Source: Pirellulaceae bacterium (lineage in GTDB: Bacteria > Planctomycetota > Planctomycetia > Pirellulales > Pirellulaceae). Taken from it: a DNA stretch of 64,000 bases. The stretch is from positions 53,087 to 117,086 of the forward strand of contig DASYHJ010000003.1 of the NCBI GenBank assembly GCA_035998725.1, read 5' to 3'. Position numbers and translations under genes: made by a program. How positions within the stretch are numbered: position 1 is the first letter of the stretch; each line of letters starts with the position of its first letter. Below are positions 52,234-64,000 of this stretch, piece after piece. The notes below the pieces were generated by a model, which worked only from the letters and a program-made list of their open reading frames with translations, had not been told where the DNA came from and made no database searches.

Positions 52234-53364
52234 ATGGCCAAGAAGCGGGCGAGCAAGGTCCGGGCGGAGTTCCGTAAACACCACGACGCCCGGACGCGGA
52301 AGAAAGACTTCACCAGCCAGGCCTCGCAGCTCGACGGTCTCGACGTCGAAACGGCGGGCGAGCGGATGTCGGGCAAGGGATCGCTCACCCGGCGACGCAC
52401 GCTGATCGGCGCCCAGACGGCGGACGAGGCCTCCGGCGTCTCGATCCTGCGCGAGGTCGATCCCGAGAAGTGCCGGCCGGGACGCGTGCTCAGCGTCCAT
52501 GGGCTGTCCTGCCGGGTCGCGGACGACTCGGGCATCGTCTTTCGCTGCGCGACCCGCGGCATCCTGAAGTCGATCAGCACCGATCAGCGACAGCTCGTCG
52601 CCGCCGGCGACCGGGTGCAGTTCCAGCCGATCGCCGAGCGCGAGGGGGTCATCGAGCGGGTCGAGCCGCGAACGCAGGTGCTCAGTCGCACCAGCCGCAA
52701 CAAGCGCCACGTCATCGCCGCGAACGTCGATCAGCTCCTGATCGTCGGAAGCGCGGCGGAGCCGTATCTCAAGCCGAACCTGATCGACCGGTTCCTCGTC
52801 TCCGCCGAAGCCTCCGGCATCCGTCCGATCATCTGCATCAACAAGATCGACCTGATCGATCCAGCGGAACTGGTCCCGCTGGTCGGCGTCTACTCGCAGA
52901 TGGGCTATCCGACGTTTCTCGTTTCGGTCCATCGCCGGATCAACCTCGACTCGTTGCGAAAACTCTTCCGCGGCAGGCAAACCGCGGTCGCCGGTCAGTC
53001 GGGCGTCGGCAAGTCGAGTCTGCTCAACGCGATCGACGACTCGCTGAAGCTCCGCGTCGCCGAAGTCAGCGCCGAGAATCAGAAGGGGCGCCACACCACG
53101 ACCGCGGCGTCGCTGATTCCGTTCGGCGACGGCTGGCTGGTCGATACGCCGGGAATCCGGCAGTTCCAGCTCTGGGACGTGGCGCCGGAGGAAGTGGAGG
53201 GATACTTCCGCGACCTGCGGCCCTACGTCAGCCTCTGCCGGTACCCGGACTGCACCCACATCGACGAAGAGGACTGCGCCGTGAAGGGCGCCGTCGCCGA
53301 CGGACGCCTCGACCTCCGACGGTACGAGAGCTACGTCCACCTGTTCCAGGGCGACATGGTCTGA
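52234..53364 (+). CDS. rsgA: Ribosome small-subunit-dependent GTPase A
   Basis: Circularly permuted GTPase: 'NVDQLLIV', 'GQSGVGKSSLLNA', 'DTPG', C-terminal zinc finger 'CRYPDCTHIDEEDC'. Confidence 0.85.
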   Translation: MAKKRASKVRAEFRKHHDARTRKKDFTSQASQLDGLDVETAGERMSGKGSLTRRRTLIGAQTADEASGVSILREVDPEKCRPGRVLSVHGLSCRVADDSGIVFRCATRGILKSISTDQRQLVAAGDRVQFQPIAEREGVIERVEPRTQVLSRTSRNKRHVIAANVDQLLIVGSAAEPYLKPNLIDRFLVSAEASGIRPIICINKIDLIDPAELVPLVGVYSQMGYPTFLVSVHRRINLDSLRKLFRGRQTAVAGQSGVGKSSLLNAIDDSLKLRVAEVSAENQKGRHTTTAASLIPFGDGWLVDTPGIRQFQLWDVAPEEVEGYFRDLRPYVSLCRYPDCTHIDEEDCAVKGAVADGRLDLRRYESYVHLFQGDMV

Positions 53365-53722
53365 ATGGGCGTCCGGCGCCGCTCTCCGCGGACGCCGCCG
53401 GTGGACACTTCGGTTGGTCGGCCGGGCCCGCAAGAAATTTTTTCTCGCCGGCGGCTGACGCTCGCTGCGCTCGACGTTTCGCCTCCGTGCTGACCGATGC
53501 CACGTCGATCGCACGGCGCAACCGCTGACGGCGCGAGAGAGTTAGCGGCACGCTCGTTGGAGGCAAGTTTGCCGGAGGCGACCTGCTTTCCCGTCGCCGC
53601 TCGCTTCCCCGTCGCCCCCCTTCGTGAAGCTGCACGTCGCCGCGACAAGCGAACGTGCGTATCGTTTGATAGAACAGAACGAGAGCCCGCCGACGTCTGC
53701 CTCCTCGCCGCAAAGGGATTGG

Positions 53723-55072
53723 ACGATGGTCGAAACCGCATCCGGCTACGAGGAGTTCGACGAACCGGTCTCGTTCGAGTCGGGTCTCGACACGCTGTTG
53801 CTCGGGGCCCATCGCGAGAGCAATAAGGGCCTCGGCTTTCATTCCAAGGCCGCCGGTCGGACCGAAACCAGGGCCGCTCTCTACGACGGCGACGCCCATC
53901 TCTGCACCGTCGCGCCGACGCGTTCCGGCAAAGGGGTCGGCGTCATCGCGCCGAATCTCCTTACCTACCGCGGCCCCGTCGTCGTCTTCGATCCGAAGGG
54001 CGAGAACTACGAAATCACCGCGCGGCGGCGCCGGGAGATGGGGCATCAGGTCGTACGGCTCGACCCGTTCGGCGTCTGCGGCGAAGGGGGCGACTCCTTC
54101 AATCCGCTCGAACTGTTCCAACTCAAGGGGATCGACGTCGAGTGCGATTCGCAGTCGATGGCCTCGCTCCTCTCGCGCGGCATCACCGGGTCGAAGGAAC
54201 CCTTCTGGGACATCAACGGCAGCGGCCTCTCCGCCGGCCTGATCGCCTGCGCGCTGACGCAGGGAGACGAGACCAAGAAGAGCCTGAACTACGTGGTCGA
54301 CGCGCTGACGCGGGATGACGTCGTTTACAACCTCGCCGTCGTGCTCGACACGGTCGGGAAGGAGATCAGCAAGTACGCCCATCGCGAGATCGCCAGCATG
54401 CTCCAGATGCCGGACATCACGCGCGGCGGCGTCCTGGCGACGGCGCAGACCTACTTCAAGCCGTTCATGTCCGACCTGATCGGACGGACGCTGGGCGAGT
54501 CGAGCTTCTCGCTGCAGGACTTCGCCGACGGCAAGCCGATCTCGATTTATCTCGTGCTCCCCCCCAGCCGGCTGCACAGCCATCGCGGGCTGCTCAAGCT
54601 CTGGATGGGAACGCTCCTCGCCGCGATCCTGACGCGGAAGCGGATCCCGCGCCTCCGCACGCTCTTCCTGATCGACGAGGCGGCGCAGCTCGAAAGCTTT
54701 CCGCTGCTCGAGCCGATGATCACCCTCGCGGCAGGCTACGGCGTCTGGGTCCACACCTTCTGGCAGGACCTGTCGCAGCTCAAAACCTGCTATCCGGAAT
54801 CGTGGAAGACCATCCTGAACAACTGCGGCGTGATCCAGACGTTCGGCATCTACAACCGTGACATGGCCGTGCAGTGGGGCGAGTACTTCGACGCCGGCCC
54901 GGCGGAACTTCGCAGCCTGACGCCGGAAGAACAGATCATCGCCATTCACGGACGCGGCGAACTCCGCTGCCGGCGGCTGAACTATCTCACCGACCGCCGC
55001 TTCTCCGGCATGTTCGACAAGAACAGCTTCTACGCGAACCGCCCGACGCCCGGCCAGCCGATGGGGAAGTAA
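53723..55072 (+). CDS. Type IV coupling-protein-like ATPase (TraG/TraD/VirD4 family), soluble, orphan
   Basis: 'APTRSGKGVGVIAPNLL' Walker A, 'VVFDPKGE', C-terminal all-alpha domain. No N-terminal TM helices. The start is uncertain; an alternative TTG/ATG lies at 53624. Confidence 0.55.
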   Translation, partial: TMVETASGYEEFDEPVSFESGLDTLLLGAHRESNKGLGFHSKAAGRTETRAALYDGDAHLCTVAPTRSGKGVGVIAPNLLTYRGPVVVFDPKGENYEITARRRREMGHQVVRLDPFGVCGEGGDSFNPLELFQLKGIDVECDSQSMASLLSRGITGSKEPFWDINGSGLSAGLIACALTQGDETKKSLNYVVDALTRDDVVYNLAVVLDTVGKEISKYAHREIASMLQMPDITRGGVLATAQTYFKPFMSDLIGRTLGESSFSLQDFADGKPISIYLVLPPSRLHSHRGLLKLWMGTLLAAILTRKRIPRLRTLFLIDEAAQLESFPLLEPMITLAAGYGVWVHTFWQDLSQLKTCYPESWKTILNNCGVIQTFGIYNRDMAVQWGEYFDAGPAELRSLTPEEQIIAIHGRGELRCRRLNYLTDRRFSGMFDKNSFYANRPTPGQPMGK

Positions 55073-55149: not shown

Positions 55150-55347
55150 TCAGGGAGGATCGATCCCGAGCAGCTTGAGAAGGAAAACGAGAATCGCGAG
55201 CAGCGGAAGACCGACCGCCGCCCAGACGATCGGCAGCCGCCGCCCGCAGTTAGGGCAGCGCAGCAGCCTCGTCCGAAAGTACGTGCCGCAGCCCTTGCAG
55301 TAACTCGTCATTTCGCCTCTCCCTTCGCGGCAGAATTCTATCGCCAT
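55150..55347 (-). CDS. Small zinc-ribbon membrane protein (65 aa)
   Basis: CKGC...CPNC zinc ribbon plus a C-terminal TM helix. Acceptable codon usage. Unverified. Confidence 0.35.
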   Translation of the reverse strand: MAIEFCREGRGEMTSYCKGCGTYFRTRLLRCPNCGRRLPIVWAAVGLPLLAILVFLLKLLGIDPP

Positions 55348-57606: not shown

Positions 57607-57683
57607 GCTCGGTTAGCTCAACTGGTTAGAGCGCCAGATGAAGACTCTGGTTGTTGCGGGTTCGATTCCCGTACCGACGACCC
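57607..57683 (+). tRNA. tRNA-like sequence with irregular acceptor stem and anticodon loop (possibly Phe-GAA-like pseudo-tRNA)
   Basis: Canonical D-arm TAGCTCAACTGGTTAGAGC and T-arm GCGGGTTCGATTCCCGT. The acceptor halves GCTCGGT/ACCGACG mispair at positions 1-2. The anticodon loop TGAAGAC has G at position 33. Confidence 0.35.
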
Positions 57684-63941: not shown

Positions 63942-64000
63942 CATGCGGTCAGCGCCGGTCGTGGTTTTGTCGGAGGAGACGCGGGTTCGATTGACGAAGC
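63942..64000 (+). mobile_element. Partial ORF at window edge, possible IS630-family transposase N-terminus
   Basis: MRSAPVVVLSEETRVRLTK resembles the IS630 HTH N-terminus (…LSEEER..L…). Only 19 codons are visible. Confidence 0.2.

Follow-up and report, generated by a model that had tools for sequence, protein, structure and literature searches.

An anchorless homologue of type IV coupling proteins encoded apart from secretion genes in a Pirellulaceae bacterium

A stretch of 64 kb of DNA from a Pirellulaceae bacterium (the window) encodes a 448-aa ATPase of the type IV coupling protein (T4CP) family that has no transmembrane (TM) anchor and is not accompanied by genes for a type IV secretion system (T4SS), a relaxase or an integrase. 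The profile, fold and motif data together identify the protein as a T4CP homologue with nucleotide-binding and all-alpha domains. The explanation that we prefer, and whose chances we judge to be about even, is that it is a domesticated, T4SS-independent cytoplasmic ring ATPase descended from a conjugative T4CP and acting on DNA or nucleoprotein. The protein is one of a clade of anchorless coupling proteins that is apparently large and uncharacterised.

T4CPs are the substrate receptors of T4SSs, and their genes usually lie beside, and co-evolve with, those of relaxases (2025 review, PMC12857230). In the literature searched, the coverage of which was incomplete, no description was found of chromosomal T4CP homologues that lack TM segments and are unlinked to a T4SS.

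The gene and its genomic setting

The open reading frame (ORF) is on the forward strand and in its longest form runs from a GTG at 53624 (482 aa) to 55072. The ATG at 53726 is its likely start, preceded at 7 nt by a Shine-Dalgarno-like hexamer (Table 1), and the public gene call for the source contig (JGI metagenome 3300035016, Ga0370534_00145, 117 kb) gives an identical 448-aa product. Of the span 53723-55072 proposed in an earlier, sequence-only reading of this DNA, the end stands, while the start had to be moved, 53723 being an ACG one codon before the ATG. The upstream gene, rsgA, ends at 53364, and the T4CP-like gene looks like a transcription unit of its own. A simple scan of the intergenic region found no sigma-70-like promoter consensus, and a search for an SOS/LexA box 5' of the gene was also negative.

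Table 1. Features of the T4CP-like gene, its product and its flanks (window coordinates)
Feature	Position	Strand	Basis or remark
Intergenic region, 361 bp, 5' of the T4CP-like gene	53365..53725	+	contains the AAGGGA hexamer, 53713-53718
CDS of the TM-less T4CP-like ATPase, 448 aa	53726..55072	+	stop codon counted in
Walker A / P-loop APTRSGKGVG, residues 63-72, Lys69	53912..53941	+	aligns with the Cagβ and TrwB P-loops
VVFDPKGE, residues 86-93, T4CP signature after the P-loop helix	53981..54004	+	family alignment
All-alpha domain within the nucleotide-binding domain, about residues 127-267	54104..54526	+	AlphaFold2 (predicted) helices 127-267; PF10412
Walker B LFLIDE, residues 313-318, Asp317-Glu318	54662..54679	+	aligns with TrwB LFIDEL
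Clade-specific conserved C-terminal motif RRLNYLTDRRFSGMFDKNSFY, residues 417-436	54974..55033	+	family alignment
65-aa ORF, Cys4 and hydrophobic tail	55150-55347	-	ORF call; sub-threshold zinc-ribbon Pfam matches

The gene calls and the Pfam scan, which cover most of the window (at about 36-42 kb some ORFs have no Pfam match), show rsgA upstream of the gene and a sulfatase downstream, as had been read from the sequence, with Band_7, PQQ and MauE-like genes after the latter. Elsewhere the window holds genes for PSCyt2/PSD1 and DUF1501 proteins, which are planctomycete hallmarks, together with GGDEF, amylase, PAS kinase, ABC transporter, OprB, sulfatase, RF-1, PrmC, PanC, MetE, MqnC-like, FliM, aldehyde dehydrogenase, sigma-54 activator, Thioredoxin-DsbH, HtrA and FtsH genes. 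Neither the called nor the Pfam-scanned genes of the 64-kb window included one for a T4SS component, a relaxase or an integrase, and the adjoining 10 kb of the source contig on the left side were equally negative; the other end of the contig lies approximately at the right edge of the window. The claim that the gene has no conjugative or integrative-element context was thus borne out over the window and these 10 kb.

In composition the gene is akin to its neighbours (GC 0.647, GC3 0.886), and its codon usage correlates at 0.956 with that of the other genes in the window, so that both are native. The only tRNA in the window (57607-57682) was examined for a tRNA-derived att repeat, and its 3' end is not repeated within the window. 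With native GC, GC3 and codon usage and no such repeat, an origin as a genomic island was rejected.

The closest relative, with 92% amino acid identity, is found in a sister genome, in which the order rsgA-T4CP-sulfatase is preserved. Between the two genomes the T4CP-like gene has a dN/dS of 0.077, compared with 0.123 (rsgA) and 0.147 (sulfatase), dS being about 0.6-0.8. The gene is under strong purifying selection; the low ratio indicates that it is functional, and under a tighter constraint than its housekeeping neighbour.

Family, fold and absence of a membrane anchor

The protein matches the Pfam profile PF02534 (T4SS-DNA_transf) with an E value of 1.6e-61 and 209.1 bits against a cut-off of 20.1, so that the assignment is far above chance, and further matches were obtained to TraG-D_C (PF12696) and TrwB_AAD_bind (PF10412, E 1.9e-9). 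The placement in the TraD/TraG/VirD4 family made in the sequence-only reading was upheld. None of the equivalog or subfamily cut-offs of eight NCBIfam models, including VirD4, IncP TraG, Ti TraG and F TraD, was reached. The VirD4, IncP-TraG, Ti-TraG and CD1115 models all match far under their curated cut-offs, the best score being 149 bits against 728 for VirD4, with 121 bits against 250 (E 5.8e-35) for CD1115. These alignments begin at around position 150 of models of about 650 residues, which indicates that the membrane-anchor region of the canonical proteins is missing here. The C-terminal part of the models is unmatched as well, and the last 95 or so positions of the PF02534 profile have no counterpart in the protein. 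Membership of the FtsK/SpoIIIE DNA translocases, which would show in an FtsK motor as the closest match and in TM or gamma domains, was not found.

An AlphaFold2 monomer model built from a 23-sequence family alignment was confident and compact (pLDDT 88, pTM 0.88). The two-domain cytoplasmic fold, a RecA-like nucleotide-binding domain and an all-alpha domain, is present in it, in such a way that the check by structure prediction upheld the proposed T4CP fold, and the model could be superposed on TrwB and Cagβ over 354-396 residues. Foldseek ranked Cagβ of Helicobacter pylori at the top (E 1.8e-19), followed by TrwBΔN70 (about 1e-14) and, lower, by the DndH C-domain and then HerA and DotL. The likeness to the defence proteins among these, the DptH C-domain and HerA, is at fold level only, and a search of the PADLOC defence families gave no match at E <= 0.01.

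Both motifs quoted in the sequence-only reading, APTRSGKGVG and VVFDPKGE, are present. Across the 23 aligned family members G68, K69 and G70 of Walker A, D89 and E93 of VVFDPKGE, and D317 and E318 of Walker B are invariant, K91 and G92 nearly so, and the counterparts of VVFDPKGE are VVFDPKAD in Cagβ and DPNGD in TrwB. The other T4CP motifs are likewise invariant in the family and align with TrwB and Cagβ, and from these residues the protein is presumably catalytically competent. The C-terminal motif, in which Y420 and L421 are invariant and D423, G428, D431 and N433 at least 90% conserved in the family, lies beyond the matched part of PF02534 (profile positions 39-373 of 468).

The absence of an N-terminal TM anchor, already proposed from the sequence, was confirmed. 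A 19-residue Kyte-Doolittle scan found no TM or hydrophobic segment in the protein, the highest mean being 1.23, whereas the same scan gave two segments above 2.3 in a control, the canonical T4CP of Sphingobium pUT1 (553 aa). An N-terminal hydrophobic segment was also missing in all of the 267 nearest relatives, namely 120 from a database clustered at 90% and 147 representatives of 50%-identity clusters, which shows that the anchorless form is the rule in the clade and not an accident of truncation.

Anchorless T4CPs are known from Gram-positive bacteria, among them TraJ, the T4CP of the conjugative plasmid pIP501, and for them recruitment by a separate small membrane protein has been proposed. 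They share the lack of an anchor with the window protein; however, they are encoded within T4SS operons.

We compared the protein with the better-known members of the family and of related ones. VirD4-type T4CPs have the APTRSGKG and DPKGE motifs in common with it, and its identity to IncP TraG, VirD4, Ti TraG, IncI2 and CD1115 proteins is 22-27%; for the CD1115 family it is 22-24%, and the genes of that family, unlike the window gene, are found inside T4SS operons. TrwB of R388 (1E9R, 1E9S, 1GKI; cytoplasmic fragment TrwBΔN70), about 16-17% identical, has an N-terminal anchor and links the relaxosome with the secretion channel, its gene accompanying those for a relaxase and a T4SS; the window protein has no anchor, and no such genes were found with it. 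Among solved structures the best match is Cagβ (8DOL), also by phmmer (E 1.3e-10). The closest canonical relatives, at about 34-36%, are the pUT1-type T4CPs of small sphingomonad and rhizobial plasmids (e.g., Sphingobium indicum, 553 aa), which have two N-terminal TM segments and whose genes adjoin that of a Ti-type TraA relaxase, the plasmids being typed as conjugative or MPF_T. With the C-terminal domain of DptH/DndH (7ES4), which belongs to the Dnd system of restriction by DNA phosphorothioation, identity falls to 11-12%. DptH is one domain within a large multi-domain protein from a dndFGH operon; for the window protein PADLOC gave no match, and there are no dnd genes close to it. A lead to the "TraG-like" component of Menshen was dropped as irrelevant, because the ATPase of that system is an ABC ATPase.

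Anchorless relatives and their neighbourhoods

The sequence-only reading had taken the gene for an orphan, a view that gave way once its relatives were collected: the protein is typical of a widespread clade, which has members in Bacteroidota and Alphaproteobacteria too. At least 1,984 relatives were found in the protein database, and the best 120 of them are all of 386-545 aa and 45-92% identical to it, including proteins of Stieleria varia, Maioricimonas, Anatilimnocola floriformis, Zavarzinella, Gemmataceae, Pirellulales and, from the Bacteroidota, Larkinella knui. In a search of GTDB contigs with one genome per species, the best 80 loci (41-56% identity) comprised, as counted from record titles, about 38 from Planctomycetota, 6 from Bacteroidota (Spirosoma, Runella, Flavivirga and Lacihabitans among them), about 35 from Alphaproteobacteria/Pseudomonadota (including Hyphomonadaceae, Caulobacterales, Terricaulis and Maricaulaceae) and one on a short contig binned as Alcaligenaceae. 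An exhaustive search of 50% representatives gave a best 150 that all reached at least 246 bits and were mostly of 420-480 aa, with the match beginning near residue 20-50. Taken as a whole, the clade relatives in Planctomycetota, Bacteroidota and Caulobacterales-type Alphaproteobacteria are 42-92% identical, and paralogues occur among them.

In a neighbour-joining tree the window protein falls among planctomycete sequences, with the pUT1-type T4CPs as the closest canonical neighbours; the tree is a simple one, and its split between TM-less and canonical proteins is not robust, with a bootstrap value of only 0.31 and a disturbance by the long branch of Ti-TraG. The 2.9 million viral contigs of IMG/VR yielded a single clade member and deposited phages none, the latter giving weak, non-clade matches only; there is thus no linkage to phages.

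The neighbourhoods of 83 loci were analysed by all-vs-all clustering of their ORFs, conserved neighbours being one of the clues to which the sequence-only reading had looked. The clade is present in three phyla, yet no neighbour is common to several of them, and the candidate of a conserved operon partner was dropped; nor did any T4SS or relaxase gene recur. The surroundings of the relatives vary and are for the most part of a housekeeping kind. The alphaproteobacterial setting is one of syntenic housekeeping genes, in such a way that genes for a POT-family transporter, a GNAT acetyltransferase, a glutamate-cysteine ligase (GCS2), RsmE and UbiA, and also for an ABC exporter, a TonB receptor and SMC, are recurrent neighbours. 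At the loci of Stieleria, Larkinella and another planctomycete the neighbouring genes are unrelated and non-conjugative. NACHT, S8-AAA and ThiF genes are close by at one planctomycete locus, and at one Gemmataceae locus a TM-bearing T4CP is encoded directly downstream of the clade gene.

Some representatives of the TM-less clade have N- or C-terminal extensions without Pfam domains, for which separately encoded counterparts were found. Nine representatives have a C-terminal extension that is matched by a 254-aa gene lying directly upstream of the homologue on S. meliloti pEm1132b; another extension has its match in the gene downstream of the Runella pSP2_1 homologue. Four planctomycete loci encode, just downstream, a protein of about 100 aa with a weak match to a domain located at the C-terminus of two representatives and at the N-terminus of a third one. 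These partner domains (X1, X2 and X3) have no Pfam annotation, and neither the window nor about 79 loci contain them. As Rosetta-stone clues to a partner of the window protein they were therefore discarded, belonging to other branches only. The Runella homologue lies among caspase/TPR genes and the S. meliloti one near patatin/ankyrin/TPR genes, contexts that hint at conflict systems for those plasmid-borne branches.

Possible functions, and a small convergent ORF

We propose that the protein descends from a conjugative T4CP and no longer works with a T4SS, its gene having been domesticated on the chromosome as one that stands alone. It would have kept the RecA-like nucleotide-binding domain with all of its catalytic motifs and the all-alpha domain for binding substrates or adaptors, and would have lost the membrane anchor and the genetic link to a T4SS or relaxase. 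By homology to TrwB, VirD4 and other members of the FtsK-HerA superfamily, its subunits would come together in the cytoplasm as a ring, probably hexameric, whose ATP hydrolysis, stimulated by nucleic acid, would drive the translocation or remodelling of DNA or of a DNA-protein complex; the ring, the DNA substrate and the cellular process served are all proposals. The all-alpha domain, a clade-specific N-terminal strand and the C-terminal YL-D-F-G-FD-N-FY motif may provide docking surfaces for an unlinked partner or for contacts between subunits. TrwBΔN70, from which the anchor has been removed, is largely monomeric in solution, so that the anchorless T4CP-like protein may need other means to oligomerise. 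The repurposing away from conjugation that had been suggested from the sequence fits with a TM-less clade that shows no T4SS link in 83 loci, with the purifying selection and with the native composition.

Extended to the whole clade, the proposal is a tentative one, possible in our view: that in Planctomycetota, Cytophagales-type Bacteroidota and Caulobacterales these proteins left conjugation and, as motors free in the cytoplasm, serve a conserved cellular function independent of T4SSs, the candidates being chromosomal DNA handling or surveillance of incoming conjugative DNA, that the alphaproteobacterial orthologues may be under cell-cycle control of the CcrM/GcrA type, by way of a GANTC site at about -42, and that other branches of the clade recruited partner domains. 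A counterpoint to domestication comes from the other TM-less branches, whose variable fused or adjacent domains and caspase, TPR and patatin settings point towards conflict systems over housekeeping.

This counterpoint leads to a role against mobile elements, in which the soluble ATPase would sense or sequester invading material such as relaxase-ssDNA complexes arriving by conjugation, or phage DNA. It would be a decoy coupling protein, or else provide the NTPase for a defence system in which the effector is not linked to it or, in the minimal form, is lacking. The precedents of DptH and HerA, the plasmid-borne distant relatives on pSP2_1 and pEm1132b, the polymorphic extensions, in some members fused and in others encoded alongside, the paralogues, the spread of the clade over phyla and the NACHT, S8-AAA and ThiF genes near one planctomycete locus all argue for it. 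We nevertheless regard it as unlikely for the window protein, which gave no PADLOC match and is of a minimal form with neither an effector domain nor a linked effector; the very low dN/dS, the stable gene order between sister genomes, the syntenic housekeeping setting in Alphaproteobacteria and the near absence of the clade from viral contigs and deposited phages also speak against this role. Still more improbable is that the protein is a true coupling protein working in trans with an unlinked T4SS and relaxase, with a separate small membrane protein bringing it to the membrane. Its T4CP motifs and all-alpha domain are all intact, anchorless T4CPs do serve conjugative systems, a TM-bearing T4CP follows the clade gene in Gemmataceae, and a 65-aa membrane mini-protein adjoins the window gene; moreover, T4CPs, among which TraJ is listed as that of pIP501, are able to work with heterologous T4SSs (PMC12857230). 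However, the same review has T4CP genes normally adjoining and co-evolving with relaxase genes, and no T4SS or relaxase gene is seen among the called or Pfam-scanned genes of about 74 kb here or recurs in the 83 loci. The identity of 42-50% across phyla is far higher than among canonical T4CPs, the scores are far under all NCBIfam VirD4/TraG cut-offs, and the mini-protein is missing at every other locus and in the sister genome. The missing anchor and unmatched C-terminal profile positions might also suggest a truncated, functionless gene, the decaying remnant of an old integrative conjugative element, an explanation to which we give hardly any credence: it is effectively refuted by the selection and conservation data, namely the dN/dS of 0.077, the invariant catalytic residues and the equal length and architecture in hundreds of relatives from three phyla, and the compact, confident model also opposes it.

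On the preferred explanation of a domesticated motor, the finding bears on the annotation of mobile elements. A coupling protein is commonly read as diagnostic of conjugation, and mobilome pipelines score each PF02534 match as evidence for a conjugative or mobilisable element. If the TM-less clade is T4SS-independent, then in Planctomycetota, Bacteroidota and Alphaproteobacteria such matches would signal conjugation falsely; PF02534 matches of this type should not be taken as evidence of conjugation. A new branch of repurposed FtsK-HerA-type motors would then stand beside FtsK, HerA, EccC and DptH. The system is also tractable, as the gene stands alone, the protein is small, predicted to be soluble and compactly folded, and the candidate partner domains that some members carry in fused form offer a guide to the function.

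The 65-aa zinc-ribbon/TM ORF that had been described as converging on the 3' end of the gene does exist; a status as conserved partner, on the other hand, did not hold. In the sister genome the sulfatase follows the T4CP gene after 30 bp and the stretch carrying the ORF is absent, and no homologue was found beside the locus of any other family member. The mini-protein is thus lineage-specific and not a partner, and with its sub-threshold Pfam matches and atypical codon usage it was rejected as a candidate membrane adaptor. A small convergent gene is also present behind the Stieleria homologue; it encodes a coiled-coil peptide unrelated to the 65-aa ORF.

Upstream sites and triple-module relatives

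In 17 of the 34 alphaproteobacterial loci, a GANTC site, the target of CcrM methylation, lies 36-49 nt 5' of the start codon of the T4CP-like gene, frequently in the context TGAnTCACGG. When the distance was extended to 80 nt or less, the site was present in 22/34 loci, against an expectation of around 9% drawn from the background of those same loci, a count that ignores the kinship between them. The position of the sites and their excess suggest a control of the alphaproteobacterial genes linked to methylation or to the cell cycle.

Among the relatives of the window protein, seven of around 1000-1170 aa (P0121, P0129, P0132, P0147, P0161, P0211 and P0220) contain three T4CP-like modules in tandem, and a Walker A pattern search produced no match in any of them (0/7). 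In the two read at full length, P0121 and P0132, both Walker motifs are degenerate, with ARSMQQW, for example, found where APTRSGKG is expected in Walker A, and LDC, LDS or LDH instead of LDE in Walker B. The seven proteins may be covalently linked pseudo-ATPase trimers belonging to the same clade as the window protein.

Neighbouring genes and plasmid-borne relatives

In four planctomycete loci, a conserved protein of around 100 aa is encoded directly 3' of the gene for the T4CP-like ATPase; in one of them (L030) it corresponds to the C-terminal part of a longer gene product. It carries the motif YLCVLVKG...YCYF...FNP..LN.IVLARSTG.PSPEIREFM..KFSF and shows a weak likeness to a domain that the relatives P0136, P0143 and P0226 carry in fusion with the ATPase. 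This protein, which is absent from the window, is a candidate partner of the T4CP-like ATPase.

Paired genes were detected in two metagenome-assembled genomes (MAGs). Two clade paralogues are separated by 2.8 kb in a Planctomycetales MAG (L004), and in a Gemmataceae MAG (L050) the stop of the soluble T4CP-like gene is overlapped by the gene of a distant T4CP of 552 aa, 27% identical, matched by PF02534 at full length and with a single short hydrophobic stretch at its N-terminus. No T4SS Pfam domains were found in the flanking 5 kb.

More distant TM-less T4CP-like genes are carried by two plasmids. On pSP2_1 of Runella sp. SP2 (L089), typed as non-mobilizable, the gene lies amid caspase-family and TPR genes. 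On pEm1132b of S. meliloti (L091), typed as conjugative, it is located apart from the transfer genes and adjoins genes for a patatin-like phospholipase, a 1650-aa ankyrin protein, a TPR protein and an adenylate cyclase. Both surroundings are a possible conflict-system context.

Small features of the window

By coordinate mapping, the last 14 bases of the window (63987-64000) lie past the end of the public contig Ga0370534_00145 (117,060 bp), so that the window may derive from another, slightly different assembly of this organism. The stretch of around 200 bp that holds the 65-aa Cys4 ORF is lacking in the sister genome (L092). The ORF is atypical in codon usage (r = 0.68), and the gene calls of another assembly give it as 53 aa. 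Either the gene is young and confined to this lineage, or the ORF was called in error. The gene called as tRNA-Leu(AAG) by ARAGORN is confirmed as a tRNA by Rfam (44.5 bits), but at only 76 nt lacks the long variable arm expected for tRNA-Leu. Its anticodon loop is UGAAGAC, with G at the normal U33 position, and neither of the top two acceptor-stem pairs is standard. The gene may encode an unusual tRNA, or it may be a pseudo-tRNA.

Features of the window and of loci carrying relatives
Feature	Locus	Position	Strand	Remark
tRNA-Leu(AAG)	window	57607-57682	+	ARAGORN call
65-aa Cys4 zinc-ribbon and hydrophobic-tail ORF	window	55150-55347	-	
~100-aa downstream protein	L008	3902-4342		
~100-aa downstream protein	L026	3048-3368		
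~100-aa downstream protein	L030	1623-2825		C-terminal ~100 aa
~100-aa downstream protein	L032	6935-7150		
Two clade paralogues	L004	8025-9302; 12081-13430		Planctomycetales MAG
Soluble T4CP-like gene; distant T4CP	L050	3447-4784; 4781-6439		Gemmataceae MAG
GANTC site (examples)	L053, L055, L057, L061, L062, L065, L068, L072, L075, L077, L081	upstream of T4CP-like gene
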